Assembly (NCBI RefSeq): GCF_000143415.4
Contig: NW_003314273.1
Location: 1,188,074 to 1,252,073, forward strand
Reading direction: 5' to 3'
DNA length: 64,000 nt
From: Selaginella moellendorffii
Lineage: Eukaryota > Plantae > Lycopodiophyta
Below are positions 4,066 to 64,000 of the stretch, piece by piece (position 1 is the stretch's first letter; each line of letters opens with the position of its first letter). The position numbers were made by a program, and so were the translations under genes. The notes beneath the pieces are model-generated. The model saw only the letters and a program-made list of their open reading frames with translations. It made no database searches and was not told the origin of the DNA.

Positions 4066-4892
4066 AATTTTTCCTTTCCAATTTGCCAGCTTACCTCATC
4101 TATCTGACCAACACTGCCTTGGCTTTAGCTAACTTCCCTCGCGAAGGTTCCCACCTACTATACCATCTCCTACTTGGTTTAAGCTACTCACTGCACGAGC
4201 AACAAAGCGTTAGTGGGGCACCACTCCACATGAGCCGGGAGCACCGCAGTTGGTTTCCCTTCCGGGAGTGGGAGCTGCTCTTGAGCACTTCCTTGGGTGG
4301 CCCCTCCAGCACCACCTGAGTCCATGCTCACTCCCACCCAAGGCCCCTCGGTCCCAGTCTCAACCTCAAGTTAGTTTGGAAGCACCACTAGAGAGTTCGT
4401 TCGAGACTGGTTCCTAGACCTCACTATCCCTACTATACTTTTGGAACACCCTGCAGCTGCCCCCCCCCCCCCCCCCCCTTGAAAGACACATGCTTTAAGC
4501 TTTCACCCCACGACCCGTATTAGTATTTGGACTCGATCTCGGACTTGACTTCGGACTCAACTTCGTACTCGGCCTTGGACTCGATCTCGAACTCGACTTC
4601 GGGCTCGACTTCGGGCTCGACTTCGGACTCAGTTTCGGACTCGATCTTGCACTCGGTCTCGGACCCAATATCGGATCTTAGACTCGGTCTTGGACTCGGT
4701 CTTGAACTCGGTCTCGAACTTAGTCTCGGAGTTGGTTTCGGACGCGATTTTGGACTCGGTCTCAAACTCGGTCTTTGAGTCGGTCTCGGACTCGATCTTG
4801 GACTTAGTCTCATCTGATAAACTCTTTATCATTTTGGTCATGCCTTCGGGGATCCTTTAGCCTTCGACACCTCAGGGAGTCGGTTCCTTACA
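4066..4892 (-). repeat. Family A LTR (central copy)
   Basis: Homologous to 21470-22449 and 58256-58542. Begins TGTAAGG on the minus strand, next to a purine-rich PPT-like tract (4893-4905). The left boundary is approximate. Confidence 0.75.
4528..4812. repeat. Hexamer tandem array (GACTCG/GTCTCG-type) inside the LTR
   Basis: Clear 6-bp periodicity; the same array occurs at ~22110-22370 and ~58256-58462. Confidence 0.9.
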
Positions 4893-5329: not shown

Positions 5330-5662
5330 CCATGTAGAAATCCTCCACTATACCTTGTGTGTTCGCAAGGTTCTCCTCTAGTTCCTATGTTGCTTTGCAG
5401 TGTGGAAATCCTTTCCACTTCACATGGACTCTCTCACCTCGTGTCCTTGTCGTTTGCTCTTGCGTGCATTGAGGATGGCCTCGACTTCATATTCCTCTTC
5501 CCCTTGGATAACCTTAGGTAAAGGTCTCACTTGGTCCTTGCAAAGCAGATCCTCAAAGTATAGCTTGAGTAGGTTTACAAGGAACACTGTGTGCATTGTC
5601 CCCATCTCTCAAGCAAGTTGGAGGTGGTAAGCCACTTTACCGATTCATGCCTCAATCTCATA
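5330..5662 (-). pseudogene. Integrase C-terminus/chromodomain remnant of family A
   Basis: HTVFLVNLLKLY...EEEYEVEAILNARK, then VKWKGF in a shifted frame. The upstream integrase sequence continues at 20227. Confidence 0.8.
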
Positions 5663-5686
5663 AAGCTCTATTTTGTTAAAGTGGGA
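5663..5686 (+). repeat. Left terminal inverted repeat
   Basis: AAGCTCTATTTTGTTAAAGTGGGA matches the reverse complement of 20203-20226 at 23/24 positions. Confidence 0.92.
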
Positions 5687-6323
5687 TTTATTCAGTAAAA
5701 TGGGACTAGGTACAAATTTTCAAGTATTTGAAAATGACGTGAAATTATATGTTTTTTGTCTAGGGGCTAGACATATCTAGGGCATGGTGACTAGCGCGGT
5801 GACTTTGTGTCCAGACTGAGTCCATCTGGTTGTATAATAAATCTCATTGTCAAGGTGAACAAGCCGAATCTAAAGCTAAAGAAGAGCGATGGCATGCGCG
5901 CACACACTATTTGTTTGTTCATTGAGCGTATGGTGAGCTTTCCAAGATGAACGTCATTCCTATTAGCCAGACATATAACTTAATGGTGAGAACATTTAGA
6001 TATTATTCAATGTTATCTTTTTCTAACGAATCTAATTGTGAAGGTGTAGCAAGAGGCATTGCTAGTCTGGAGAAGTCATTTAACTCATTTGACCCTTAGT
6101 GTATTTTCATGAAACTAAATAACATTCATATTATTAAGGAATTTCTCTAGTACCTTTTTTTTACGACATAGAGTCTTGCATTTCTTTCAAAGGTGATTTA
6201 GTAAAAGGCCTGAGGGCACATGCCATTCTATTTCTCAGACCGGTATTAAGATATACTAGTGCAAAGGGGAAAAAGGTATTTGGTGATCAAGTAAATGGCA
6301 TGAGGGCACACGCCATTATAAGC

Positions 6324-6580
6324 CTAAGCGCTAGTGGACACCTCCTTTTTGGTACTCTCAGCGGTACTATCATCCTTCTCTGGGTCAGTTGTTTTGCTTT
6401 GGATTGTTGTCTCTGACGTTACTGGGGCGTTCTCGATAGTTGTTAATGTTGCCGTTTGTTCAGAAAAATGATCACCTGGAGTATAGTACGGGGAGTTTGG
6501 AAGACTTATATATTCTACATCTTCACCTATCTCCTTCTCCGTCTCCTTTTCTGCCTCACTTACAGATTTTGTGCTTGCCA
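6324..6580 (-). CDS. Possible acidic/Thr-rich 3' exon or small ORF of the transposon
   Basis: Open frame MASTKSVSEAEKETEKEIGEDVE..., co-oriented with and downstream of the transposase. No recognisable domain. Confidence 0.3.
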
Positions 6581-7308
6581 TGAGAACGCTCTTCACCCTA
6601 AAATATGGAGTTCGTTGTGTTATAAAAGGAAACCAACACACACGCTGCAAGGGAATGATGGTACATAAAGCACGTAAGCCCACAATATGGGTTTATGTGC
6701 CATTAATATGGGCCACACGCCATATTATTAGATTTATGCACGTGTGATTGGTAAATGCATATGTCACATCATCTTTGTTTTACCTCACACACTATATCAG
6801 GCCTAATGAACCATATCACATGTGCGCACATGCTATATATATGGAGAAGTATTATGCAAGGATAGAAAAATTCAATGCATGATTGTGGAGAGCAATGGCA
6901 TGAAGCCACATGCTAAATAACATTTTAGAGAAAGAATTAAAATAGAAACATACAAACAGTACTGAGTGGACCAAGACTTAGAAGTGCACAATTGAATGAG
7001 GTATTTCTAATAAATATTTCACTCACCTCATATAGGAATGGCTACCACTCTCAAATGGCGTATCGCCTCATGCCATCACCTCGCAATTTGTTATAACAAT
7101 CCGATGAATTCATATTCGGCTTGTTCACCTTGAACTTTAAGTAAGATTTGCTAGAACAACTAAGAATTTATACTTGTTATTTGTATCATCTCACCTAGGA
7201 ATGGCATAAGGCCACATGCCATCACGCCTCCTCTAATTCAGATTCGGATTGTTCACCTTGAAATAAAATACATTAGAAACTTAGTAAAGGAATATTAATG
7301 AATCTCAC

Positions 7309-10075
7309 CTTGAACCCGGGTTATGAATGCCCTTGCTGCATCTCTTGCATGGTCTGGCAAGGTGATGGTGGCACTCTACTTCCGCATCCAACCATGCACA
7401 ACATTATCCACCGATATGCTCATGCTGGGATCCCTTGGATTCAGCACCCATCTCTTTTCTAGGCAATCCTTCGTATATCCGGAACTTGGCTTGAACCACT
7501 CCACAGTTACATTGAAGGAGTTAGTTTCCGCATCCTCCTCTGCATCAGTGATGCAGCGCCCCACCCATATCATTTGTTTTTTATTACTGGGTCTGACAAG
7601 CACGACCATTCCTTTGCAGACCTGTACTGGATTGAATGCTGAATCCGGCTTCTTGTTCCTCGGCCCACAATAGTGATCCTCAACATCGTTATCTGTCACT
7701 GCATTTCCAGAGGACATTGTTCCGCTACTATCTGGTGCTCTGGGTTCTGGCCAAAAGGACTCTTCCAATTCTTCATATACAACCGGCCCATTTTGGATAG
7801 CAGATATAATCTTCTCCCAGTATTCGAGCAAAGGCTTGCATCTCTGAAAATAGGATTCTCCACCAAACACCAACCCCCTCTTCCAGAAGGCAATATGCTG
7901 TCTAATCCTGGCCACTATACTTTCCTGGTCTTTGAGTCCATCCGGGTGCATCGGCCGTGGGGAACCCTGAGGAATCATAGGTTCCCCAGTTATGGGATCT
8001 CTCTTGAAAAGTTCAATGCCGTCCACTGGCAGCCACACTGTGTCCCATTCTCTCATCTTGTACCTCATCACTGGAGCACCGTCACACATGCTGAAATGAA
8101 ACTGAAGAGGCTTGGAGTGGCCAATCAACATTTCAGATCCGTCCCTGATGTAGCCTCTTACAAACCCCTTAAAGTCTGGAACCTCTGTCACAAGTGCAGC
8201 TTCAACAGTGCCTTTGATGCAATTTTGGAATTCATCGTAGAATTGTGGGAGGGTGAGGACATTAGATCGCCAGAGGGACTCTGCCAGGTGACTGAACATG
8301 GCATCGATGTCTTCATGAGTGTGCCCAACCATGAGAAAGCCAAGTGTAACCGTTTCAAATATGCCTTTGGCAACAAGCATCGCCAAGTACGCGAAGCCGT
8401 ACATGTTTTTGTTCTCACTGCCAGCATTGTCTGTTTGGAGCAGAAGATGGGGTGGAAGGCCACATCGGCCGCAAGAACTTCCTTGAGATTCTGCTTCGTT
8501 TGGATGAGGCTGTGCATTCACCGGGCGACCAGCCTCGTCGGAATGCCATGAGGCCTCACGTGATAACCCTACAATCTGACGGCCAACATATTCACTGGGA
8601 TGGCATGNNNNNNNNNNNNNNNNNNNNNNNNNNNNNNNNNNNNNNNNNNNNNNNNNNNNNNNNNNNNNNNNNNNNNNNNNNNNNNNNNNNNNNNNNNNNN
8701 NNNNNNNAATCATCATATTTGCACCCCCGCCACCCCATAGAGGTACAAAGAAGTCCCATAGTTCTGGGCACCATGCCCATGAGCGATTATGCCAAATAGA
8801 GACACAGGCAGCTGCATGGATGAAGAGATTGCCTTGGGGGCAGGATTGAGTCGAGGTAAGCACGTCTTTTTCTGGTCCATTTTGTCGTGGATGATGCAGA
8901 GGTAAGAGTCAAGTCTCTCTATGGAGAGAATCCTGTTATGATAATATGCAGTCCTGCAGCTTCTCTGCTCGATGTTGTGGTCGAGCTACCTTCTAACCAA
9001 CGTCTCTCGCTCTTGAGCGATGCAAGAATTCTTCGACAAAGCCATTTTGATAGCAATGCACTCGTCACACTTTGAAAAGCTGGAGTACTTTCCTATACTC
9101 ACATCCCTGAACCTGTTTCTCCACAATCTACTAAATCTAGATTGGCTCAGCTTCCTGTAGCCATTACTCTGGAGTTCCCGATTCACATCTTCCAATATGG
9201 CCAACTTGGTATACATGGAAGGGAGAACTCGTTGGGTGTCTCGAGTTCCATCTTCCAAGAGGCGGGTTTTATGTGGTTGCTGCTCGGTACATGTCTCGAC
9301 AAACCTCTTGAAGATTGCCTCTCCATATACAACATGACCCCTGGTTTTGTGAGTACCGTCGTTCCCATGGACTGCCTGTTGAACCCTTTGTTCCTCGAAC
9401 TCAGTTTTGATTATGTAGAATGTGGTTCGAGGGACTCCATAAATGATTCTCCATGCCTTCATGCAGACCAAACCCCTCTGGAAGACCATGCCCCCCACCT
9501 GATGTTCTGAAGCATCAACAAATGACCGTAATGCCTCATACACAAAATTGCGAGCTGCCTTCTAGGACAATGTCTTGTATCTTGCTCTCTCCTCTTCAAT
9601 AGCATCCCAATCAGCATGTTGACAGCACCTCCTCTTGCAACAAGCAACTGTCGAGACCATTCGAACCTCCATCGCCATTTTCTGCCTTTTCGGTTCGTTG
9701 CTCAGATCCCTTTGGCTGCGCTTTAGGAAGGTGTACTTTCTTTTCCCATGAAGAGATGTTATGTCATCAGTTGTAGTGGTGTTTGATTGTGAATCCTTCA
9801 CATTCTCAAACACTAAGTGCCTCAATTTCCACCGCACAATGCTTCCAATAGTCAGACTGTTTTCTTCTGTGTCAACAACCTCTAAAATCACAACTCCAAT
9901 ATCATCCCAGCCCAATTCTTGATTAGCAACCGCATCTCTTGGATCGACAACTATGGCTAAGCCCTCAGCTACCACCTCCCCCTCGGGGTTGTTTAGAAAC
10001 ACCTTTTCCTGAATCCATGTAGCACGGTTCTTAAGATCCACAGAGGGAACATGCATCGCACTTGCGGAGGCTATT
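7309..10075 (-). pseudogene. DDE/D transposase, Sola-like/DUF7869-type, disrupted by 3 in-frame TAGs, a frameshift near 8754 and an N gap
   Basis: Motifs in order: CCKRRCC, VCMKAWRIIYGV, FSKCDECIAIK, YLCIIHDKMDQKKTCLP, LLLQTDNAGSENKN, FLMVGHTHEDIDAMFS. Splice acceptor at 10076-10077 and donor at 7308. Family recognised from memory of the motifs. Confidence 0.85.
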
Positions 10076-10227
10076 CTGAAAGTGCAGAAAAGAAGTTAAG
10101 ACCATACAAAAAATGATTGGAGAATGGCCTAAATCATAACATACCAAACAACCTCAATAGCATGAGGCCACATGCCATTATTCAAACATGCTATTGACAC
10201 CCATGTGAAATTTCGCATTCACAAAAT

Positions 10228-10552
10228 TGGCATGAGCCCTCATGCCATTAGTGGTACCACTAATGGCATGAGGCCTCACGCTATCTTTGGCCCCTGCTAG
10301 CCTGTTGCTATATTCCNNNNNNNNNNNNNNNNNNNNNNNNNNNNNNNNNNNNNNNNNNNNNNNNNNNNNNNNNNNNNNNNNNNNNNNNNNNNNNNNNNNN
10401 NNNNNNNNNNNNNNNNNNNNNNNNNNNNNNNNNNNNNNNNNNNNNNNNNNNNNNNNNNNNNNNNNNNNNNNNNNNNNNNNNNNNNNNNNATATAGGCAAA
10501 GGATATGGCAATAGGCTAGCAGGGGCCAAAGATGGCATGAGGCCTCATGCTC
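10228..10552. repeat. Nested inverted repeats/hairpin around an N gap
   Basis: 10228-10283 is a near-perfect palindrome centred on GTGGTACCAC. 10264-10316 is the inverted copy of 10501-10552. Confidence 0.85.
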
Positions 10553-10890
10553 ATCTTGATAAACACACAGCTACAGGCAGGTAAAGAAACTATTGGCAAT
10601 ATGCTAGTGATGAACTTGCAAGCCCCAAGATGGCATGAGCCCTCATACCATTAGTGGTACCGTAGCGCCACTCGCACCACCGCAACTGCTCGTAGCGCCG
10701 CTCGCACAAACTGCCACTCGCATAAACTGCCGCTCGCAATGGCGCTCGCAATGCCGCAACCGCTCGTAGACGCATAAACCACAGCTCACAATGCCGCTTA
10801 CACAAGCAGCGCTCACTGCGCTCAGCGGAACCAAGAACACGGCGCACAAAAATGGTAGACCTAGGAATGAGTTCGAGAATTCAAAAATAA

Positions 10891-12822
10891 CACACGCTTG
10901 AACGTCACATCAAATCCTCTGACAAACCAGATCTTATGATTCGTCTGACAAATTTTAAACTGAGTAGCTTCTAGACTTTGCTGTCGGACGTTGAACTTTG
11001 TCACATCATGTCCTTGCCTCGATCCAGCTGTGCCATGTCAGTGATTCGAACTTTGCCATGCCATGTCAGCGATCCGCGCCAAGATTATTCGCCGTGTAAA
11101 GGAATAATTATGCTGTGTGTGTACGTCCATTTATGGCAATATAAGGCCACACGCCATTCAAAGAATAATGCTAGTCGAGCATTTTTTGGTGCATTTTTGG
11201 GTTCAAAATTGCATGAGCCCACACGCTATAAAGTTTACCTGTACCAAAAATAGAAACAGCTTTATTTACTTGGGAATTTAAGTGGTTGAGGCATTTTTAA
11301 ACTTACAAACACATGCCCTACTTACATTCCTTTGGTTGCTTAAAATTCAAAAATATTATAAACTTTTCTTTTTGCATTTTCAATGTTTTCAATTATGGTT
11401 TTTGATTTTCGCAGGACCAGCCTAGTAATCTATTTGCATCCCGTCATGTTTATAGCTAGCTTTCGTTTGTCCCCTTCGCTAGCCTGAGATACATCTGCTC
11501 GGCATCTGCCTCTTACAGCATTTGCCCAGAAAGGGCATCTTTCTTCACGCAGCATTTGCCACATGTTTAGGGTTTAGGGTTTAGCAATTCAGTAGCTTGA
11601 TAAACATGCAAATACAGAACTTGATGCAAAATCCTTTGATATGTCACAATGCCCCTAGGACCATAAACACATTTCAATAGAGAGGGTCCTTTCATTTCAT
11701 AACTCCTTACGTAGATCTTGGTGAAACCAGAGTTAGTGAAGTTAGTTTCTTGTGATCCCGCATCTGATTGTGATGTCCCTTTGCAGTGTCGATGGAAAGG
11801 TCAATGCACACCAAACTGTAAAATCTTGGAGCAAAATAACGGTCGGATCTATGGCAAATGCCCTTGAAACATTGTAAGGCTCGTGTGGTCTCATGTGGTG
11901 TCCAATCGAGATGCTTCTTTGCAGGGTCATCAAGAAAGACATTGTATACCATTCTGTAAAATCTAGTTGCGATCTAACGGCTGGATCTCCAGAAAACTCA
12001 AAAAAATCTCGCGCGTGTCAGAATATTCTAGGAATATACTCCTATGTGCCCCTTAAAATGGCATGCGGCCCCACGCCATTCAAGAGATAACGCCAGATGA
12101 CACCGAGCATTTTTTGGTGCATTTTTTGGGATCAAAATTGCATGAGCTCACACGCTTGAACGTCACATCAAATCCTCTAACAAACCAGATCTTATAATTC
12201 CTCTGACAAATTTCAAACTGAGTAGCTTCTAGACTTTGCTGTCGGACGTTGAACTTTGTCACATCATGTCCTTGCCTCGATCCAGCTGTGCCATGTCAGT
12301 GATTCGAACTTTGCCATGCCATGTCAGCGATCCGCGCCAAGATTATTCGCCGTGTAACTGCTCGGCATCTGCCTCTTACAGCATTTGCCCAGAAAGGGCA
12401 TCTTTCTTCACGCAGCATTTGCCACATATTTAGGGAGGGTTTAGGGTTTAGCAATTCAGTAGCTTGATAAACATGCAAATACAGAACTTGATGCAAAATC
12501 CTTTGATATGTCACAATGCCCCTAGGACTATAAACACATTTCAATAGAGAGGGTCCTTTCATTTCATAACTCCTTACGTAGATCTTGGTGAAACCAGAGT
12601 TAGTGAAGTTGGTTTCTTGTGATCCCACATCTGATTGTGATGTCCCTTTGCAGTGTCGATGGAAAGGTCAATGCACACCAAACTGTAAAATCTTGGAGCA
12701 AAATAACGGTCGGATCTATGGCAAATGCCCCTGAAACATTGTAAGGCTCGTGTGGTCTCATGTGGTATCCGATCGAGATGCTTCTTTGCAGGGTCATCAA
12801 GAAGGACATTGTATACCATTCT
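10891..12822 (+). repeat. Internal direct duplications in the intergenic region of the transposon
   Basis: 10891-11099 matches 12149-12357, and 11495-11955 matches 12358-12822, both near-identical. Confidence 0.9.
11566..11584 (+). promoter_or_regulatory. Short plant telomere-type repeat (telo-box-like)
   Basis: TTTAGGGTTTAGGGTTTAG; duplicated at ~12429-12451. Confidence 0.55.
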
Positions 12823-13483
12823 TTATTTAGCTGAACATCTGGCATTTTTGGAAATACAAGATGCTTTGGAATATCCAATCATGCATGGTATAAATATAGC
12901 GAGGGTATTAAATGATATCCCAATCATGATCTTTCTTTTGGATTTCGCGTGCATGCAGTCTGAGGAATGATGACGTTGCGGATTTTTTTTGGATTTCACG
13001 TGCATGCATGCGCGTGGCGATCCAGAAATTAATGGTGGCGCCCAAGTCCGAGGAATGATGACGTTGCGGGATTACCAACCGTCGTGACATTTCGCGCGTG
13101 TGAGGTTAGGTTTTGCATTTTGCTTCGTACTCGCGCTCGCATCGCGCTCCCACTCGCGATCACGCTCACATTCGCGCTCATCTACCTTCTCTACAGGTTT
13201 CTCGTGTGCATCGGCATCCACTCGCGCTTACATCACACTCGCGCTCGCATCGCACTCGTGTGCATCGGCGTCCACTTCAAGACACACCCAGTTTGTAACT
13301 TCGCCGCCAACTCTGCCGCCCACTCCGCCACCCACACGCAGCCCACTTGGCGTCCCGGGAGATTTCAGCACCACTCTCCAACTGTAAGTGGCAGAGTAGC
13401 CTTGTTGCTACGATCCACTGCACAAACAGTGCACATTCGCCAGCGAGTCCGGCCTCGATTGTCACGCCTCCATTCGGCTTCAA

Positions 13484-16400
13484 ATGGTAAGTCTTTTAGG
13501 CCAAGTAGAAAATGGCATGAGGCCACATGCCATTCAGTAGCAACATTGGCATACACCGATTGGGCTCTCGAGTGCAGTCCGGTTACAGATGGCGTGTAGC
13601 CTCACGCCATCTTAGGATGCAGCCTCAAGACATCTGATGTAGTGGTGAATAGCGTGTGGCCTCACGTTATTTCCAGCTGCTAGCTTTTCATCTGTCAGCT
13701 CTAATTGTTGTGCATTTCTGAACAGGCGAGGAATTGCGTTCTTCTTCCAGCCACTGTCAATGTGGATGCAGAGAAGGGGGAGGAGCTCACCAGTTGGACT
13801 TTCGGGATGGAAGGCGAGGATCTGAGGCTGTACAACACAGATGGTGGGAGAAAAGAATGCATGGGGATCCTCATCCAAGTGACAGACACTCCATGCAGTT
13901 CCATGCAAGAATATGGACTGGCACTTGTGGTAGAAACAGCGTCTGCCTTCAAGATCCACCTTGCACATCCTAGCGGCTTCCCGGAGGGGGGCAGCGGCTA
14001 TGAGGAATTCCTAGAGGGAGCTAGGGAGAGGTTGTCCAGGAGGCCCACAATTTCAAAGATGCTGCGGTACTATGAAGATCACATGGAATCCACGGACCTC
14101 ACCTACGGCGATGTTCAAAAACTATATTCCAACATTGAGCTGTTGAGAGTGACTCCAGTTCGCGAAGCAAAGGGGAAGGGGGTCGATCTGGAAACTACCC
14201 CGAAGCAGAAAAGGGTGGTCAAGCTCAAGCCGACGTCCGACTCTCCTGCTCCAAAAAAGAAGCTACTCGGTGATGCCATTGCCTCGGGTTCGAACACTAC
14301 ACCCACCAAAAGGAAGAGCCGCAAAGAGCAGAAAGAGCAAGAAGAGGCAGCAAAAATCGTCGCAGATAATAGTACTTGTTACTATTCCAACAAAGTATAT
14401 ACAATCGACGTGAGCCACATCGACATCCAAAGCAAATACAACCACAGGCTAGTATCTGATGAGTGGGTGGAGAAACTGAAGCAGAAGATGCTGGCAAGTC
14501 CAGTAACACCTGACATCGCAGACGTGATCCCCTACTACCGAACAATAAAGGGCGAGATGAGGTTTCCAGACTTGATCAATAGGAAGGTGTTGGACGATCA
14601 GAACATCCGGTTCTATGCCGTCTCCGGGCAGCATTCTAGCTTGGCGATACAAGAGATAGTTGTGGATATTATGGTGGGCGAGGAGGTGAAGAAAGTCTTC
14701 AAGACAAGAGTTGTCTACCTGATAAAAGGCAACTCGCCCCTCCGATCTATCATATACATCTCCCACGCGCAGAATGTCAAGCAAGAAATGTGCTACAAAT
14801 CGGGTCTGCACGAGACATTGGCACGAACATGGAAGCTCTGGGTTCAACTAAAGAAGCCACAAAAACCAGGACAAGGACGTGCACTAGCAACTAGCGCCTG
14901 GCAGGTAAGCCTCGTTGCATGTGGCATAGCATGTGGCCTCACGCTATTTCCATTGTAGGAATTCTCGAGTCTTCTCTCGAAAACACTAGGGGTCAATGAC
15001 ACACTCAGCATCCATAACATTCTACTCGTGATAAAAGTTGTTTTTGACAAATGGGTAGATGTGTTGAGGAGGTACCATGACGGGGAGTTGCTAAACTCAA
15101 TGGGTGTGGAGGACGGCCGGAAGCCCAATGATTTGAAGCTCAATGCCTTGCGTTTCTCACGGTCTTTAGATGAGGACGACCTTCTGACAGTGGCTAATGC
15201 TCTTCTACGTGGTGAGGTAGTCTTCAACAAGACCAAAATGACTCCCGGCCATATTGTGACATACGAGGACTTGTGCACGACTCTGAGAGCTCGTGCGCTA
15301 TTGAAGGATTGGATCTTCGAGCAAGTGGCCATGGAGAGGGTGAGCATTGACATCACGCAAGAGATGATGGAAGAGCTGGAGTTGTCAAATGAAGACATCG
15401 ACGAGTACGTGAAGGGGGCCCCCAAGTTCATTAATCTGCTGCGGGATGCCACGAAAAGTAAAGCTGAGAAGTTGGATCAGTATCCAAATTTCATTAAGAG
15501 GGATGTCGACCGCCGGCTTCAGAAACAGCTCGACCCCGCAGCAGAGGCCTATCGAGAACCTTACCGGGTATACGTGAATTCGGATGAGGATCATAGGTGG
15601 AGGAGCATCGTTTCCCGCGGAGATGAGCAGGTCAAGAACATCTTTTGTGTGATGGACTTCACAAACGAGGAGATCACTCATGCAGACGAAGTCAGCTCCA
15701 TCATTGATTTAATGGTGGGACTTGCGGAGGTGGAATCTTCAGTCCATTATATGATCTACGACTCCGAATCCTATCACAAGTTCTAGAAGGCCTTGAACGA
15801 GGTGAAGGCTCGGTTGAAAGGCAAGGAGATGCGGGAGATCCATGGGATAATGGCTAAGAAGAAGATACCGACGAATGTCCGCATCTTCACACTCGCCCTT
15901 GTTATTGGTCCTGCAACAGAGTGGGACTGGAGTGACTTCCCAGCTTCGTTCGACAAGGCCGATCGAATTGATCTGAGGGAGGTCAATTTACCCGTGCCTG
16001 AGGAACTGAAGACGGCTATGGAGCTTTCGAATCCAGAGAAAGCTCCAGGTGCAGCATGGGAAATGCTCAACTGGGTCTTCAACGCAATAGCGGGTGGGTC
16101 ACCTGCTTCCGACTCCAAGGGCAAATGCGTTGTCGAGTACAATTGCGGCGGACTATTCTTTCGAGCCACACTACTCAAGGGTGTCCTGTGTGTTGTGGTG
16201 ACAAACTCCATTGAAGAGGTGACTTCAATGGAGCATATAATTACAGTTGCCAAAGAAAAACAGTATCTTCTCTGCGAACCTGGTGAGTACGCACTTTAAG
16301 TTTAAATGTTATCTCACAAGCTCTGTATGCAGGAGCGTGGCCACCCCCAGATGCTGAAACGGCGTTAATAGCTACTGTTGAAGATACCCATGTTGGGCCG

Positions 16401-19400
16401 AGCTCACAACCTGCACAAGGTAAGGTCACGTGAGGCCTCATGCCATTTTGATTATAGATCGTTGTGAATATTCAGACACGAGGACTGAAAAGCGCACTAG
16501 TGGCGCGTCGAAGAAGGACAAACAGACAAGCAATAGGAAAAAAGGAGGTACAAATTATATTTGCAATGGCGTGTGGTCTTATGCCATTCCTTGCAGGAGA
16601 CACTTCTTCAAAGGCAAAACAGGCAAGCACAAGCCAAGTACAACGGACGAGAGGTACCAATCATTTTTGTTATACGTGAATTCTCATGCCATTGCTTCTT
16701 GCAGCTCAAATTCCAAAGAGATTAGGGCAAGCAGCGCAGACCTCACGACAAGAACCTGAAGGTTTGATGGCGTGTGGCCCCACGCAATTAACTAATGTTC
16801 TTGCAAATCGTGTCGAGGAAATCGAACGGAACAACGTGCCTCTAGTGGAGGAGGGGGAGGCCTCGGAGAGTGATAAGGAGAGTTCCGAAACAGGTACGAT
16901 CATGACATATGGCCCCATGCACTTATCTAAGTTTGTATTTCAGGGGAACAAGTTGAACCAATGGAAAACTTTATGAAAGGTAACTTAAAAATATTATGGG
17001 ATGTTGCATGTGTTGATGCAATAATATACAGTTCAAGTGCCAAGGAGACGTCGTGAACCTCGAATTAGGCTACCTGCAAAATAGCTTTCAGATGCTGTAG
17101 ACAAAGAGATGGATAACCAACCAGGGCAGAGGAGGAAGGGTAAAAGCATTTGTGTGCTTATTGCGTATGTCCTCATGCTATTTCTATAGAACGGGCGCAT
17201 AAGAAACGAAAGCGAAAGGGAATTGAGGAGCAGGCACCTGAGGATGCGGAAGGCACGACAGAGCCTCCAAGGACGGGAAGTAAAGCGTCATGGTTATTGC
17301 GTGGGTCCTCATGCCATTTCTTGCAGATCAAGCTCAAACTGACAGTGGTCATAAAAAGCGAAAGCACGTTGGACAGTCGTGGGGATCAGAGGCGTTTGAT
17401 TCGAAAAGGAAGAAGGGCAACGAAAAGATGATAGGTAATGCCTCGCGGTTATGGCGTGTGTGCTCATGCCATTCATTGCAGATCAAGGGCTGAGTGAAAG
17501 CAGCCAGTCACCACCTCCTGACTCAGATTCCTATGGCAGACTCCCCTTCCCCAATCTCAATGGAGAGGTACAATGGATGAGGGATGCTTTTCAAGTCAGG
17601 GCCACGTTTTTCTCATCTCATCGTCTTTGAAGGGTGCAAGAATGTGCAGAAACCATGTTAAGACAGTCGGGTGAGGATACGGTCCTAGGTCATGCACTAA
17701 AACAGGCTATGGATGTCTTGTATTTTGAGATGGAGACTCGGCCAGATGATTTTCCCAAGATGGTCCTGGAAGAACAAGCCATCCAGCCTGAGCAGCCTAT
17801 GGAAGAAATGCAGGAGGGGGATGAGGAGCCAGAGAAAGATAATGAGCAGGAAGAGCAGAAGGACGAAGAGGAGGACGAAGAGGACTTGGATGGTCCTCAC
17901 AATGGTGACGATCACAATAACGACGATGACCATGATGACGACAATGGCCAACCTGAGGTGGCCAAAGAGCAGCGGAGGAAGGTCATACAAGACAAACCAT
18001 CAGGTAAATAATAGTACATCCATTCCTAACCTTTTACCATTTCTAACATTGTCCATGTAGGTCGCAGAGCAAATGGTAAGTAGAGATTATTCAGTTGAAT
18101 TAAGATACAAACTCTAGCCTTTAGTGTCGAGGAAGGATAGTGCCAAGCAAGGGTCGAAACGTATGTCCAATCCTTCAGAATCAGCAGTGCGCCTAAGTGA
18201 TATCGGTCCTAGTTCCTCAATAGCAGTTGATGGTAAATACAATATAGTCGATTCAATATGCTAATGAGTTTGTTTTTAGTAGCACGGAAGGATACCATCT
18301 CAATCGAAGGGAGATATTTGGACATGCATATGGAACCGCCAGTGGACTCTACTTGCCTGCAAGAGTCATCAGAGCTGGTGGAGGCTACTATCCATATCAA
18401 CGCCAAGCAAGCTGACCACGCTCCACTTGATGCTGCCCATACCACTGAGTCAATCTTGTCCATGTATCCAACTGACGGTGACCAGGCGCCATTGGACCCG
18501 CATGAGGCCGCCCCAGCCGCCGAGCCGGTCGTATCCTCATTTCCAACGGACTCAACGTGTGCCCAATCGTCTGACTACGCGCCGTTGGAACCTCCCTACA
18601 CCGCCCCTGCTGCCTGTTCGATCATGTCCACTTTGCCAACGGAGGCACTAGCTGAAATGGCGTGTGATCACACGCCATCGGAACCACCCCATGCCACTGT
18701 TGAGCCAGTTGTACCAGAGTCTACAACTGAAATGGCATGTGCCCACACGCCATCGGATGCGATTGACCCCACATTGCAGATGAGAGTATTTCCGCCTTTC
18801 ACGTTTCCTTGACCAAAACCCTCTCAACGACCATCGGGAGCACCATTCGCTAATATTGTAGATGGTAAAATTGACTTGTACCATTTTTTATGCTGACACA
18901 TTTCATTTCAAAGTCACGGCGAAGGTACTGTATCGTTTTTGATCTGAACGGTGTCCTTTTCTCCCATGAGCGTGGCTCGTCCTCGAATGTCACTGCACCC
19001 TCCAAAGCATGCGGTCGCAAGTTGGTCAAAAGAGACAAATTCACATTAATCACACGGGAGAAACTGCAGGATCTAATAATGACCATGCAACACTTAAAAC
19101 AGAGGGCCGGGTTCAATTTGCAATTGGGAGTTTGGACATCCATGATGCGCCACAATGCATTAACGTTGCTACAGATGATGCACGATCAGATGTGAGTAAT
19201 ATTACCATTTGACTTTCTCCTAACGCAGGAGGATTGCTTGACTATGGTCCATGTGAGGGGTAGCAAGCCCATCTTCGTCAAGCCAGAGGCTGTAGTGATG
19301 AACCGGACTGCTAGGTCAAGTGAAATCCTCATCATCGATGACTCGTCGATTAAAACTGCAGCGAACACGCACACATATGCAGTGCACCCCATCTCTTGCA

Positions 19401-19774
19401 GTATGGAAACTAGGGAGAAGAAACCGTATGTTCTGGGGGACCTTGCAAAACGGCTTGGAGCGATGGTGATAGAGAACCGGCCAGTCCAGGAGGTGGCTGC
19501 AGAAATCAACCAAATGGCAAATGGAACGGTATATCAGAAGCCATTTGATCGGACAAACACTAGTCATCATTTATGGCATGTATATTGTCTAGCCAAGCAC
19601 TATCCGCATCTCCATAATCTGCTCAACCGGATGGGTTCTTCGACCACTGAACATGAGCGTGGACATATTAGAGAAGAGATGGCATTACTATTGGGTTTAA
19701 ATCCTAATAGTGTGGAGAGTGATGAAATTCCAAGATTATTGTATAGGTGTTGGAAGCAAAAAATAACAGTCTGA
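13484..19774 (+). pseudogene. Multi-exon transposon cargo gene (~1,750 aa): ParB/Srx-like, degenerate MTase-like, low-complexity linker, FCP1/NIF HAD-phosphatase-like
   Basis: ATG at 13484, then frame-preserving GT-AG introns: 13487-13725, 14905-14958, 16283-16332, 16420-16475, 16548-16596, 16654-16704, 16762-16806, 16894-16943, 16980-17031, 17140-17189, 17280-17326, 17435-17481, 18004-18060, 18076-18124, 18233-18279 and 18865-18911. Five in-frame stops. Two acceptors are mutated here but intact in the copy at 61176-64000. Confidence 0.8.
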
Positions 19775-20202
19775 GATGGCATGTATTTATTTAAAAATGT
19801 AACTTATTATGGCATGGGGTTCCATGCCATTGTATTAATATTAAAAGACAATTCTTTGAGAGGATTTGCATTATACTAGAAGTGTTACAGCATGTTACAA
19901 CATGTTATTGGAAGTCTACGAAGTTGTTTTATTAATAAGGGGAAAGTAAAGATTGAATGGGGACTTGGGCTCCATCTAAACTCGGAGCAACTGAGCCAAT
20001 ATTAAAAGGATGGAAAGAAATTGGACGACGATGACAAGGAGAAGAGAGAGGTGAAGCAGTGGCAGGGGGAGGAGAAGTGATTGAGTAGACATTTCCTTAT
20101 TTAAAATAAAATGGCATGTGCCTCAATGCAGTTGAATTTTGTTATATTTATATACTATATAAAGGTTTGGAAACCTTATTTTACAAGTGGGATAATGACA
20201 AT

Positions 20203-20226
20203 TCCCACTTTAACGAAATAGAGCTT
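20203..20226 (-). repeat. Right terminal inverted repeat
   Basis: TCCCACTTTAACGAAATAGAGCTT, the inverted partner of 5663-5686. Confidence 0.92.
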
Positions 20227-21450
20227 CATAAGGCCCCACGAACCTGCTTAAGGAACTCAAGATCAGTTCATTTCCAGGAATACATGCATTTTTACCTTTG
20301 GGTAAACTTTCGGCTGATCCCACTTGGTAGCCTTAGGTTCTTAGTGTTCAGCCACACCTTCTCCCCAGGTTGGAACTCTACGTCCCGACGCTTCTAGTTT
20401 GCATACTTGGTTTGCCTTTATTGAGCCCGTTCCAAGGAATCCCTCACTAGATTCCAAATGTTGAGCCTTTCCGCCATGAACGCCTTCACTGCAAGTAACT
20501 CTCCATGATACTCGGCCATGCCGAGTTTCACAAGATATTCAATAGCCTGCCCATTGATGACTTCCCATGGATTCACCCTGATACTCGAGTGTGGTGAGTT
20601 ATTATAACACATTTCCACAAATCTCAAATAACTTACCCAATCGGTCTGGTCCTTCAAGACATAGCATCACAAATAATCCTCCAATTGCCTATTCACCCTT
20701 TCTGCTTGTCCATCTATCTGTGGGTGATAGGCTGTACTGAATTTCAACTTAGTGTGATATTGTTCCAAGAGAGTTCTCCAGAACCTACTAGTGAAGATCT
20801 TATCTCGATCTGAGATAATCTCTTCTGGCCTTTCCCGCATTCGAACCACTTATTTGAATAACAACTTCACCACACCTTCGGCATCCACTTCTGTTATGGT
20901 GGGTATGAAATATGCCATCTTCGAAAATCGGTCCACCACCACAAATATTGCATCGAACCCCTCACTTGGGGGGAGTCCCATGATGAAGTCCATCGTAAGA
21001 CATTTTCACGGACGATCTGGAATTGGGATGCTTTTTAACAAGCCCCCACTAGCTTTAGTCACGGCTTTGACCTGTTGATATATTGGACATCCCTTTACAT
21101 AGTCTTGGACGTCCTTAGCCATATCTGGCTAGTGATACTTCCTCTTATGTAAGCCCATCATCTTGGGCACTCCACCGTGTCCCGCAAGAGGTCCATCATA
21201 ACACTCTTCTAAGGCTACCTTCCTTAGTTCCCCTTCTGGAACATACACCCTTGTTTGTTTATAATAGATGAGTCCATTGTGTTCTGCATAGCTTGTTTTC
21301 TCTTCCATTGGCAGCTCACCTCTTTGGTGAGCTTCTCGCGCCTCCAGGTTCATCAGCAACACTGCTTATGCTAGACCATTATTCTCATACACTGTCTGCA
21401 CATCATCCCAAAAGGTTGCTATCGTGCTGGATATCACCAGCTTTAAGCTT
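20227..21450 (-). pseudogene. Gypsy integrase remnant (family A)
   Basis: ECYDGPLAGHGG; IISDRDKIFTSRFW; STAYHPQIDGQAERVNRQLEDYL. Confidence 0.9.
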
Positions 21451-58255: not shown

Positions 58256-61175
58256 CAGACTCAGACTCGATCTTAGACTCGATCTCGGACTCGACCTCAG
58301 ACTCTGTCTCAAACTCGATTTCAGACTCGGTCTTAGACCCGATCTCGGGTCTTGAACTCAGTCTTGGACTCGGTTTTGAACTTGGTCTCAAACGCAGTCT
58401 TGGACTCGATCTTGGACTCAGTCTTGAACTCGGTTTTAGAATTGGTCTCAGACTCAGTCTCATCCGATGAACTCTGTATCATTTTGGTTGTGCTTTCAGG
58501 GATCCTTTAGCCTTTGACACCTCAGGGAGTTGGTTCCTTACAACTCCACCACCCATAAAAAAAGTTTAATGCCCACATCGAATGCCTCTTTTTAATCCTA
58601 TGGCTTGTTGACCATGTCTCTGAGGGCATCCCCCCATTTAGCAGTGTGCCTAAGTTAGCCTCCTCAACCAAAAGCCCATGACAATGGAATATAGGTGTCC
58701 TTATACCCCTCCCCTCACCACACCCTAGTATGGGGTTGGGACTTGAACCCAGCCTTGTATTACTAGAGTCAAACCTAACCTCCATAGAATACGTCTATAG
58801 ATTCAACATCCCCACAGGGAGTCGAGTGTAGTTTCCTACGCCTAGTCGACCTAGCTAAATCATGCTAATTATCTTACCTTTGGCGCACCTTCTGGTCCTA
58901 ACATATGACATTATTCAATTTTGCAAATAGATTTTTTAATTTTGCATAAGTATATAGAGTTCTACTTTGCAAAAATTCCTCCACTAGATCCCGTGCGTTC
59001 ACTAGGTTTTCTTCTAGTTCCTATATTGCTTCGTAGTGTGGAAATCCTTTCCACTTTATATGGAACTCCCTCACCTTATGTCCTTGTCACTTGCTCTTAT
59101 ACGCATTGAGGATGGCCTTGATTTCCTATTCCTTTTCTTATTGGATAACCTCAGGGGAAGGTGTTACTTGGTCCTTGTGAAGCAGATCCTCAAAGTAGGG
59201 CTTGAATAACTTCACATGGAACACAGGGTGCGTTTTCCCCATCTCTCAAGGAAGTCGGAGGACCTTACCAATTCGTGCCTCAATCTCGTAACACCCTACG
59301 AACTTGCTTAAGGAACTCAAGATTAGTTCATTTTCAGGAATACATGCATTTTTACCTTTGGGTTAGCTTTCGGCTGATCCCACTTGGTAGCCTTAGATTC
59401 TTGGTATTCAACCACACCTTCTCCCCAGATTGGAACTTTATATCCTGGCACTTTTGGTTTGCATACTTGGTTTGCCTTTGTTGGGCCCGTTCCAAGGAAT
59501 CCCTCACTAGTTTTCAAATATTGAATCTTTCTGCCATGAATGCCTCCACTATAGGTAACTTTCTATGATACTCGGCCACGCTAAGTTCCATAGGACCTTC
59601 AATAGCTCACCCATTGATGACTTCCCATGGACTCACCCCAATACTCAAGTGTGGTGAGTTGTTATAGCACATTTCCACAAGTCCCAAATGACTTACCCAA
59701 TTAATTTGGTCTCCGGAGACATAACACCGCAAATAATCCTCCAGTTGCCTATTCACCCTTTCCGTTTATTCGTTTGTCAAGAAGTGTTAGTGCTATCAAA
59801 CTTGACTTAATACCCAATAACTATCTATGGGTGATAAGCTGTGTTGAATTTCAACTTGGTGTGATAGTATTTCAGAAGAGTTCTCTAGAACCTATTGGTC
59901 AAGATTTTATCTCGATCTAAAAGAATCTCTTCTAGCCACTTGAACCACTTGTTCAAAAAATAGCTTTATTACACTTTCCGCATCTACTTCCGTTGTGGTG
60001 GGTATGAAATGTGCTATATTCGAAAATCAATACACCACCACAAATATTGTATCAAACCCCTCACTTAAGAGGAGTCCCGTGATGAAGTCCATCATAAGAG
60101 ATTTCCATGGACGATCTAGAATTGGGATGCTTTGTAACAAGCCCCCACTAGCCTTAATCATGGCTTTGACCTGCTAACATATTGGATATGTCTTTACATA
60201 GTCTTGGACATCCTTAACCATATCTGGCTAGTGATACTTCCTTTTGAGTAAGCCCATTGTTTTGGAAACTTCGCCGTGTCCCGCAAAAGGTCCATCATGA
60301 CACTCTTTTAAGGCTACCTTCCTTAGTTCCCTTTCTGGAACATACACCCTTGTTTGTTTATAATAAATGAGTCCATTGCATTCCACATAGTTTGTTTTCT
60401 CTTCCATTGGCAACTCACTTTTCTAGTGAGCTTCCCGTGCCTCTTAGTTCCTCAACAACACTTCTTGTGTTAGACCATTGTTCTTATATGTTGTCCACAC
60501 ATCGTCCCAAAAGGTTGTTGTCTCGCTAGATATTGCTAACTTCAAGCCCGCCTTTTTATTTAGAGCATCTGCCATGATATTGCTCTTCCCAAGTTTATAC
60601 TGAGTCTCACAATCAAACTTAGCCAAAGCATTTGCCCACCGACCCTGTTTCCCTCTCAGGTCGGGCTGTGACAAGAAGTGTTTCGTTGCCACATTATCTG
60701 TGTAAACTTTGAAGTGTCTCCCAAGGTAGTGTCGCCACTCCTTGAACACCTTGACCACCACAAACAATTCCTTCTTGTGAACAAGCCACTTTCACTGAGC
60801 CTTGTCTAGCTTTTTTGAGAAGAATGTTATTGGATGGTTATCTTTTTTCAAAACTATGCCCAATACAAAGTCTGAAGCATTCGTTTCTACCTCAAAGTCT
60901 TTACTAAAGTCTGGTAACACCAACACATGATCCTTCCTCAACTTCTCTTTGAGGTGGATAAATGTTGCTTCGCATTTTGCTGTCCATACCATCTTCCCTT
61001 TTCCCATTTGATCTGTTAAAGGAAGGGCTACTCTCGAATAGTGTTTAATAAGCTTTCGGTACTAGTTGTATAACCCCAAGAATGCCCTTAACTCGTATAC
61101 ATTCGATAGTCATTCTCATTCCTGGATCGCTTGGACCTTCTTAGGGTCCACCTTGAGCAAGCCTTAGGGTCCACC
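58256..61175 (-). mobile_element. Family A gypsy fragment (RT end, RNase H, integrase, chromodomain, PPT, partial 3' LTR)
   Basis: Colinear with 4600-5662 plus 20227-21450 and with 746-1310. Contains the uninterrupted counterpart of the DNA-transposon insertion site. Confidence 0.9.
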
Positions 61176-64000
61176 TCAAGCAATCCTCCTGCGTTAGGAG
61201 AAAGTCAAATGGTAATATTACTCACGTCTGATCGTGCATCATCTATAGCAATGTTAATGCATTGTGGCGCATCATGGATGTCCAAACTCCCAATTGCAAA
61301 TTGAACCCGGCCCTCTGTTTTAAGTGTCGCATGGTTATTATTAGATCCCGCAGTTTCTCCCGTGTGATTAATGTGAATCTGTCTCTTTTGACCAACTTGC
61401 GACCGCAGGCTTTGGAGGGTGTAGTGACATTTGAGGACAAGCCACGCTCATGGGAGAAAAGGACACCGTTCAGATAAAAAACGATACAGTACCTTCGCCG
61501 TGACTCTGAAATGAAATGCGTCAGCATAAAAAATGGTACAAGTCAATTTTACCATCTACAATATTAGCGAATGGTGCTCCCGATGGTCGTTGAGAGGGTT
61601 TTGGTCGAGGAAACGTGAAGGGCGGAAATACTCTCCTCTGCAATGTGGGGTAAATCGCATCTGATGGTGTGTGGGCACATGCCATTTCAGCTGTAGACTC
61701 TGGTACAACTGGCTCAACAGTGGCATGGGGTGGTTCCGATGGCGTGTGATCACACGCCATTTCAGCTGGTGCCTCCGTTGGCAAAGTGGACATGACCGAA
61801 CAGGCAGCAGGGGCGGTGTAGGGAGGTTCCAACGGCGCGTAGTCAGACGATTGGGCACACGTTGAGTCCGTTGGAAATGAGGATACGACCAGCTCGGCAG
61901 CTGGGGCGGCCTCATGCGGGTCCAATGGCGCCTGGTCACCGTCAGTTGGATACGTGGACAAGATTGACTCAGTGGTATGGGCAGCATCAAGTGGAGTGTG
62001 GTCAGCTTGCTTGGCGTTGATATGGATAGTAGCCTCCACCAGCTCTGATGACTCTTGCAGGCAAGTAGAGTCCACTGGCGGATCCATATGCATGTCCAAA
62101 TATCTCCCTTCGATTGAGATGGTATCCTCCCGTGCTACTAAAAACAAACTCATTAGCACATTGAATCGACTATATTGTATTTACCATCAACTGCTATTGA
62201 GGAACTAGGACCGATATCACTTGGGCACATTGCTGATTCTGAAGGATTGGACATACGCTTCGACCCTTGCTTGGCACTATCCTTCCTCGACACTAAAGGC
62301 TAGAGTTTGTATCTTAATTCAACTGAATAATCTCTACTTACCATTTGCTCTGCAACCTACATGGACAATGTTAGAAATGGTAAAAGGTTAGGAATGGATG
62401 TACTATTATTTACCTGATGGTTTGTCTTGTATGACCTTCCTCCGCTGCTCTTTGGCCACCTCAGGCTGGCCATCGTCGTCATCATCGTCGTCGTCGTTAT
62501 TGTGATCGTCACCATTGTGAGGACCATCCAAGTCCTCTTCGTCCTCCTCTTCTTCGTCCTCCTCTTCTTTGTCCTCCTCTTCGTCCTTCTGCTCTTCCTG
62601 CTCATTATCTTTCTCTGGCTCCTCATCCCCCTCCTGCATTTCTTCCATAGGCTGCTCAGGCTGGATGGCTTGTTCTTCCAGGACCATCTTGGGAAAATCA
62701 TCTGGCCGAGTCTCCATCTCAAAATACAAGACATCCATAGCCTGTTTTAATGCATGACCTAGGACCGTATCCTCACCCGATTGTCTTAACATGGTTTCTG
62801 CATGTTCTTGCACCCTTCAAAGACGATGAGATGAGAAAAACGTGGCCCTGACTTGAAAAGCATCCCTCATCCATTGTACCTCTCTATTGAGATTGGGGAA
62901 GGGGAGTCCGCCATAGGAATCTGAGTCAGGAGGTGGTGACTGGCTACTTTCACTCAGCCCTTGATCTGCAATGAATGGCATGAGCACATACACCATAACC
63001 GCGAGGCATTACCTATAATCTCTTCGTTGCCCTTCTTCCTTTTCGAATCAAACGCCTCTGATCCCGACGACTGTCCAACGTGCTTTCGCTTTTTATGACC
63101 ACTGTCAGTTTGAGCTTGATCTGCAAGAAATGGCATGAGGACCCACGCAATAACCATGACGCTTTACTTCCCGTCCTTGGAGGCTCTGTCGTGCCTTCCG
63201 CATCCTCAGGTGCCTGCTCCTCAATTCCCTTTCGCTTTCGTTTCTTATGTGCCCGTTCTACAGAAATAGCATGAGGACATATGCGATAAGCACACAAATG
63301 CTTTTACCCTTCCTCCTCTGCCCTGGTCGGTTGTCCATCTCTTTGTCTACAGCGTCTGAAAGCTGTTTTGCAGGTAGCCTAATTCGAGGTTCACGATGTC
63401 TCCTTGGCACTTGAACTGTATATTATTGCATCAACACATGCAACATCCCATAATATTTTTAAGTTACCTTTCATAAAGTTTTCCATTGGTTCAACTCGTT
63501 CCCCTGAAATACAAACTTAGATAAGTGCATGGGGCCATATGTCATGATCGTACTTGTTTCGGAACTCTCCTTATCACTCTCCGAGGCCTCCCCCTCCTCC
63601 ATTGGAGGCACGTTGTTCCGTTCGATTTCCTCGACGCGATCTGCAAGAACATTAGTTAATTGCGTGGGGCCACACGCCATCAAACCTTCAGGTTCTTGTC
63701 GTGAGGTCTGTGCTGCTTGCCCTAGTCTCTTTGGAATTTGAGCTGCAAGAAGCAATGGCATGAGAATTCACGTATAACAAAAATGATTGGTACCTCTCGT
63801 CCGTTGTACTTGGCTGGTGCTTGCCTGTTTTGCCTTTGAAGAAGTGTCTCCTGCAAGGAATGGCATGAGACCACATGCCATTGCAAATATAATTTGTACC
63901 TCCTTTTTTCCTATTGCTTGTCTGTTTGTCCTTCTTCGACGTGCCACCAGTGCGCTTTTCAGTCTTCGTGTCTGAATATTCACAACGATCTATAATCAAA
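61176..64000 (-). mobile_element. Second, inverted and truncated copy of the giant DNA transposon (cargo-gene exons)
   Basis: The reverse complement is near-identical to 16447-19241, with the same exons, introns and palindromes. It continues past the window end. Confidence 0.95.

Follow-up and report, generated by a model that had tools for sequence, protein, structure and literature searches.

Palindromic candidate target sites for a predicted ParB-fold accessory protein in a probable Sola1-type transposon of Selaginella moellendorffii

Why should a plant transposon carry one palindrome 32 times over, and which protein would read it? The question is raised by a stretch of 64,000 nucleotides from the lycophyte Selaginella moellendorffii (RefSeq assembly GCF_000143415.4, contig NW_003314273.1, positions 1,188,074 to 1,252,073 of the forward strand; hereafter the window), which holds a 14.6-kb element with two divergent genes, one for a transposase and one for a long, spliced accessory protein that we call the cargo. 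Our preferred answer, to which we assign a probability of roughly 45%, is that the palindromes are candidate binding sites for the element's own cargo, a protein with a predicted ParB fold, which would regulate its own family. An earlier note on this DNA had proposed a new system; however, the pairing of a Sola1 element with an opposite-strand gene for a ParB and amino-methyltransferase protein is already known, and self-binding by such a protein has been put forward as well (PMC12477816). What is new here are candidate target sites, in two distant elements, for ParB-type transposon accessory proteins. The text available of PMC12477816 names no target for self-binding; with an exact candidate site in each of the two elements, the idea can be put to a direct test.

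The palindromic array and the cargo protein

The palindrome, ATGGCRTGWGGCCWCAYGCCAT, is present in the element in 24 copies at up to 3 mismatches and in 32 copies at up to 6, in line with the approximately 30 sites counted before, although it measures 22 bp and not 20. Not a single copy was found in the 46,609 bp of window DNA outside the family at any threshold from 3 to 6 mismatches, and the eight sites beyond the element all fall inside a second family copy, so that the word is indeed confined to the element family within the window. Markov controls gave means of 0-0.8 copies with a maximum of 3, and none of 100 shuffles equalled the 29 matches in the window. The great majority of the sites (29 of 32; P 6e-8, with coding sequence making up 55% of the element and the transposase counted as 7310-10078) are non-coding, and a site at up to 5 mismatches lies in nine of the 16 introns of the cargo model, among them seven introns of about 50 bp in the linker region of the gene. 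Positions T7 and A16 are invariant in all 32 copies, and the palindromic word was kept while the flanks of the sites diverged. Covariation between the arms was not detected (pair 6/17, 15 observed against 16.2 expected; pair 9/14, 10 against 12.1), which favours a protein site on double-stranded DNA, and the reading of the palindrome as a hairpin was dropped for the same reason. Judging from the sequence, the palindromes thus look like protein sites on DNA. By eye, no half-site was seen in the terminal inverted repeats (TIRs). Short repeat units at 6800-7310, towards the 3' end of the transposase gene, hold a splice-donor-like word and a palindrome.

The hand-built cargo model, whose 1,766 codons in 17 exons agree with the divergent, spliced gene of about 1,750 residues described earlier, has two splice acceptors mutated from AG to AA. 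A ParB/Srx fold is predicted for the C-terminal half of exon 2, where an AlphaFold2 (AF2) model was obtained from 10 sequences at a predicted local distance difference test score (pLDDT) of 58, four distant cargo homologues having made the folding possible. With this model Foldseek retrieved Noc (E 8.4e-4), and VIA retrieved ParB 7bnk (Z 10.4, root-mean-square deviation 2.5, 95 residues aligned), rows 1-30 of the VIA result being chains of ParB, Noc, KorB, Srx, SerK, SbnI and the like. ParB, Noc and KorB, which stand among the top fold matches, bind palindromes, as the titles of structure entries in part record. The ParB box, read by eye, is GQHS in the window cargo and GQHS, GQHT or GNNS across the six aligned sequences, all six of which lack the arginine of the GxxR box. 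This arginine is needed by ParB for binding cytidine triphosphate (CTP) and for clamping, and its absence weakens the partition-like role that the earlier note had considered, while the ParB-like assignment itself is borne out at the level of the predicted fold.

The C-terminus of the cargo matches PF03031 with 25.4 bits (cut-off 21.8, E 1.3e-5), which upholds the phosphatase-like part of the earlier description; at the place of DxDxT, the catalytic motif of FCP1/NIF proteins, it reads DLNGV, with the first aspartate retained. The alpha/beta region downstream of the ParB part is likely a degenerate N4/N6-methyltransferase remnant, an assignment by sequence that leans on its positional match to the tail of the cargo in a distant element, L083, described below. 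Taken alone, the window protein gives no support to the methyltransferase-like label: it has no Pfam match to PF01555, an HHalign comparison with a profile built on 21 bacterial members of PF01555 gives a probability of 0.1%, inside the range of 40 shuffles, and the score of its tail against the L083 tail was equalled by 27 of 300 shuffles. Amino-methyltransferases carry the catalytic motif [DSN]PP[YFW]. This motif does not occur in the exon 3 translation, where DFTN stands at the likely place (by eye). The helical region in between is not significantly similar to its counterparts in L083 and in a further locus, L042 (15/300 shuffles; P 0.41). Four cargo homologues (E 3.5e-7 to 5.4e-4) were retrieved on short contigs from a 50%-identity library; word-index searches found no long ones, which is weak evidence, and no relative of the ParB part was found in viral contigs or prokaryote genomes. 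Searches of PHROGs, NCBIfam and PDB sequences yielded no significant match to the cargo, and the best hit in phage records had an E value of 0.3.

In our preferred reading, the cargo would bind as a dimer, recognize both halves of the palindrome and thereby mark copies of the family as self, and the bound protein would likely help these copies to be transcribed despite host methylation. The methyltransferase part would have lost catalysis, the FCP1-like part may tie the protein to transcription, and the sites were possibly multiplied through duplication of short exon-intron units. Such a mode of action would be akin to that of VANC or TnpA, exerted by an unrelated protein; the binding, the site-reading domain and any effect on silencing are proposals.

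A distant element and the rival explanations

Related loci were sought in metagenomes, where the best 80 of 308 stretches were kept and grouped into 51 clusters; palindrome arrays were then looked for in 45 loci, namely L081-L083 and the representatives of 42 clusters that reached 2.5 kb (nine shorter clusters were dropped). L083 is a complete Sola-type element whose contig sits in a prokaryote bin labelled Nitrospirales; it bears introns and is therefore taken to be eukaryotic. It encodes a DUF7869 transposase and, divergently, a ParB-like gene (HHalign P 2.7e-4; none of 300 shuffles reached the score of its ParB-like domain against the window domain), the tail of which matches PF01555 proteins over their S-adenosylmethionine-binding region (P 2e-4; its score is 27.5, and 60 shuffles gave 10.7 +/- 2.4 with a maximum of 20.0). 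Moreover, it holds 31 copies of a palindrome of its own, GTTGAAATTTCAAC; eight stand towards the left end, inside a cargo intron, and the other 23 towards the right end. A distant complete element thus combines this gene pair with a palindrome array of its own, and the co-occurrence of cargo and motif that had been expected of relatives holds for L083, but not for four loci that have arrays without a detected cargo.

Several observations were made at other loci. L042 contains a piece resembling the helical region of the L083 cargo (4086-4367; E 7e-5), convergent to a DUF7869 transposase. Two further ParB-like exons, 61-64% identical to L083, lie on the contig of L083 amid large inverted repeats at L127 (9467-9628 and 13952-14101), with no transposase match and no L083 palindrome within 20 kb. 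Downstream of the transposase in L033 (3959-4507) and L041 (11984-12349), the palindrome TTGGTGGCCACCAA occurs in 113-bp tandem units, and this word recurs in the separate clusters of L034, L052, L073 and L018. Family-specific arrays also stand by DUF7869 transposases in L012 (36-353, 47-bp tandem), L003 (525-1726), L009 (556-4496) and L002 (632-1574). L065 and L067 are transposase loci within very long inverted repeats, which may be foldback-like or assembly artefacts.

A number of results weigh against the cargo as reader of the sites. ParB profile matches were found in none of the 80 metagenome loci, and only six of the 45 tested loci passed the array test (L003, L009, L012, L041, L046 and L083), each with its own word, that of L046 being AT-rich and doubtful. 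In L003, L009, L012 and L041 no cargo was detected, in L041 even with about 10 kb of sequence on either side, while the L083 sites lie 0.3-1.6 kb from the ends, like transposase-bound subterminal repeats. A helix-turn-helix was not demonstrated in the cargo, as the model of the helical downstream region in exon 3 is unreliable (pLDDT 39) and a fold search with it was uninformative. Nor was there any mutational shelter near the sites between the two window copies, a comparison of small numbers over 2.8 kb of two broken copies (CG changes, 5/22 in sites, 10/108 within 100 bp and 18/122 farther; CHG changes, 11/112 versus 7/112). That the transposase binds the palindromes, by internal or subterminal loading or for self-activation, while the cargo does something else, is accordingly the alternative that we take most seriously, tentative as it is. 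The cargo-less arrays, the sharing of the L041 word with L033, L052 and L073 and the subterminal position in L083 all fit it, as do a weak TNP1/EN/SPM match, below the cut-off (E 0.014), in the N-terminal first domain of the full-length UniParc transposase P0047 and the precedent of AtMu1, where the transposase by itself suffices to demethylate and switch on the family (10.64898/2026.08.24.746577). However, the motif is unlike the TIR, the sites extend over 14 kb with a concentration in the cargo introns and the inter-gene region, and no TNP1/EN/SPM-type Pfam match was obtained for the N-terminus in two scanned L083 transposase exons. Besides, contigs without a detected cargo are mostly short or decayed, and a cargo acting in trans could serve them, the decayed L041 included.

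Alternatively, the cargo might bind the sites in a mechanical role: clamping or bridging DNA like ParB, it would compact the 14-kb element and unite its ends, or hold the excised DNA. The predicted fold, the large size of both complete cargo-bearing elements (14.6 and 10.9 kb) and the presence of sites close to both ends in each of them are consistent with this, whereas the arginine-free GQH[ST] or GNNS box and the fusion to methyltransferase-like and FCP1-like parts, which suggests chromatin or transcription, make it unlikely in our view. Binding by a host factor, or an origin of the sites as neutral by-products of tandem duplication or as RNA hairpins affecting splicing, would suit the likeness of neighbouring cargo exon-intron units (74% over 77 nt) and the five intron sites that end 8-11 nt upstream of the 3' splice site. 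We hold this to be very improbable, as the word outlasted its flanks, the arms do not covary, every family has its own word and Rfam has no match within the element. Slightly less probable still is an active N4-cytosine or N6-adenine methyltransferase writing its own mark at the sites; the counterpart in Ectocarpus is predicted to be such an enzyme (PMC12477816) and the L083 tail matches the cofactor-binding region, but the window protein shows neither a PPY/F/W motif nor profile similarity beyond that of shuffles. With the cargo as the preferred reader, a wider proposal can be outlined, which we ourselves regard as doubtful: giant Sola elements of plants, algae and an animal-like host might have in common a third, ancient system by which transposons recognize themselves. 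In it, a ParB-methyltransferase protein of prokaryotic origin would read a palindrome specific to the family and spread over introns and ends, protein and word changing together; in the lineage of the window element an FCP1-like module, which sustains transcription of the element, would have taken the place of the enzyme.

The element, its copies and its decay

The coordinates of all features are collected in Table 1. Insertion of the element is established by a paralogue of the flanking retroelement near 59277, in which the two flanks are fused over one 4-bp word, and by public sequencing-run contigs that fuse both flanks at the same empty site. Its junctions read CATA+AAGCTCTAT on the left and ATAGAGCTT+CATA on the right; the inverted arms are 88% alike over 33 nt, flank counted in, and the host site is a retroelement (Gypsy integrase region, judged by eye). 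The earlier outline of a 14.6-kb element bounded by TIRs and target-site duplications (TSDs) stands, and "complete" is apt for its ends and its two genes, but the copy is not intact: the transposase has stops, one frameshift, a deletion of about 243 bp and two N gaps, and the cargo has five stops. The transposase carries DUF7869, which we take to be the Sola transposase of the Sola1 subgroup, with the motifs IIHDKMDQ, LQTDNAGSEN and GHTHEDID, three acidic motifs in all, and the 4-bp TSD and the TIRs of about 27 bp are traits of the Sola superfamily, so that the Sola-like label is sustained. A last transposase exon may lie near 6327-6650, which is uncertain. P0047 is 92% identical to the window transposase, which means that the transposase of this family is already in public databases; 37 homologues come from metagenomes, Riccia and animals, three related loci were found in prokaryote genomes, and viral contigs contained no relative. 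Residues 1-170 of P0047 seem to form two similar beta-rich domains, the first of which is missing from the window copy (9778-10068).

Table 1. Features of the window and of the distant element L083
Feature	Coordinates	Strand	Basis or remark
Element	5663-20226		plant DNA transposon, 14.6 kb, multi-copy family
Left TSD, CATA	5659-5662		sequence, empty-site paralogue, joined flanks in run contigs
Right TSD, CATA	20227-20230		sequence, empty-site paralogue
Left TIR, about 27 bp	5663-5689	+	
Right TIR	20200-20226	-	
Seven sites: 5889, 6205, 6295, 6815, 6895, 7055, 7201	5889-7222		3' non-coding part of transposase gene
Transposase main coding region (DUF7869)	7309-10078, ends approximate	-	Pfam E 6.5e-38
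One site	8543		within transposase coding region
Nine sites: 10157, 10227, 10263, 10532, 10630, 11136, 11208, 12058, 12137	10157-12158		inter-gene
N gap	10317-10489		inter-gene region
Duplications inside the element, 209 and 468 bp	10891-12825		inter-gene; copies 97-98% identical; short TTTAGGG repeats present
Cargo gene model	13484-19774	+	hand-built; 17 exons, 1,766 codons, single frame, 5 premature stops
Three sites: 13512, 13589, 13649	13487-13725	+	cargo intron 1
Predicted ParB/Srx-fold domain, model residues about 54-188	14390-14795	+	AF2, Foldseek, VIA
Helical region, then alpha/beta region	14959-16282	+	stop at 15784; alpha/beta part likely a degenerate N4/N6-methyltransferase remnant
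Low-complexity linker of short exons	16283-18864	+	seven introns with a site
Two exonic sites: 18657, 18732			cargo linker region
FCP1/NIF-like HAD domain and C-terminal extension	18914-19771	+	stop at 19193
Two sites: 19809, 20111	19809-20132		3' of cargo gene
Second family copy, inverted, truncated	61176-64000	-	matches cargo part 16447-19241; 8 sites
L083	G003:C12, 2865-13771		complete Sola-type element, 10.9 kb, 4-bp TSD ATAA

The second copy is 96.3% identical to the element and is interrupted at one end by retroelement sequence, while its other side leaves the window; each copy sits within or next to a retroelement, and the two retroelements are alike. In one sequencing run (X1), 30,055 contigs map to the cargo half, about half of them less than 99% alike, and contig sets as shallow as 3-5 million letters already span almost all of the element, from which we infer many diverged family copies. 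The dominant form in the sequencing runs lacks 16635-17328 and has a transposase longer by about 243 bp. Contig ends that hang loose at 16447-16452 match palindrome-bearing sequence elsewhere in the element, and we did not read them as signs of recombination. A run guessed to be RNA has contigs that cross intron 1 unspliced, and may be DNA. The TTTAGGG repeats between the genes are telomere-like; together with the CG and CHG decay and the transposase relatives in Riccia, they point to a plant host. Taken together, the element is a decayed copy of a multi-copy, likely Sola1-type plant transposon.

The two window copies differ mainly by transitions (65 of 74 differences), distributed over CG (33/252), CHG (18/224) and CHH (14/877) contexts; this CG/CHG decay is the pattern expected of host-methylated DNA. 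The pN/pS ratio of 0.60 between them is biased by the same decay and was not used as evidence.

Comparison with known systems

The closest counterpart is Sola1-1_Ec32 of the brown alga Ectocarpus, an element of 21.5 kb with an opposite-strand gene for a ParB-like and N4/N6-methyltransferase protein, for which binding and modification of the element's own sequence have been put forward (PMC12477816). The two share the giant Sola-type architecture, the 4-bp TSD and the opposite-strand ParB-like accessory gene, a likeness drawn from domain descriptions and not from sequence homology; they differ in that the Ectocarpus protein has 1,104 residues with no FCP1 domain named in the available text, while the cargo has an FCP1-like C-terminus in a longer model and a degenerate methyltransferase part (PMC12477816). 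A palindrome array is not mentioned for Sola1-1_Ec32 in the main text of that paper, and its supplements use "palindrom" once, for an EnSpm family. Sola elements have a DDD transposase and a 4-bp TSD, in some cases exceed 15 kb and occur in Physcomitrella (PMC10741241). By description the Physcomitrella patens Sola1 (Repbase name Sola1-1_PPa) is likewise of DDD type with a 4-bp TSD, and the window family may be one of these P. patens Sola1 elements, given the 92% identity of P0047. Neither a palindrome array nor an FCP1 fusion in such elements was found in the accessible parts of PMC10741241, PMC12477816, PMC12973397, PMC5751038, PMC4738411, PMC9033089, 10.1101/2021.09.26.461848 and PMC6431247; Repbase, Bao 2009, Yuan and Wessler 2011, Iyer 2011 and Petroll 2025 may cover either.

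In its organization the element resembles the Arabidopsis VANDAL/VANC system, where an accessory gene is likewise accompanied by a family-specific motif whose copies built up, by way of tandem repeats, in introns and elsewhere outside coding sequence (PMC5735166). VANDAL elements belong, however, to another superfamily, their motifs are 8-9 bp long and not described as palindromic in the available text, and binding and demethylation have been shown there (PMC5735166), whereas binding is a proposal for the present element; no shared domain was seen. Spm TnpA and AtMu1 also have clustered family-specific motifs through which an element-encoded protein binds and activates cognate copies, but these motifs are terminal and the regulator is transposase-derived, and the available text mentions neither Sola nor ParB (10.64898/2026.08.24.746577). 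If our preferred reading of the cargo as self-binding regulator is true, sequence-specific transposon counter-silencing is not limited to Mutator and CACTA transposons of angiosperms.

Phage ParB-linked amino-methyltransferases share the arrangement of ParB beside an amino-methyltransferase (PMC4738411). With bacterial ParB/parS, Noc/NBS and KorB the cargo has in common the ParB/Srx fold, here predicted, and palindromic sites. In contrast to the bacterial ParB systems, the element has no visible ParA partner, the CTP-box arginine is absent and the gene is spliced and eukaryotic. If the cargo is a self-binding regulator, counter-silencing would here have been built from a bacterial partition-type fold, which would offer a DNA-targeting module for long sites.

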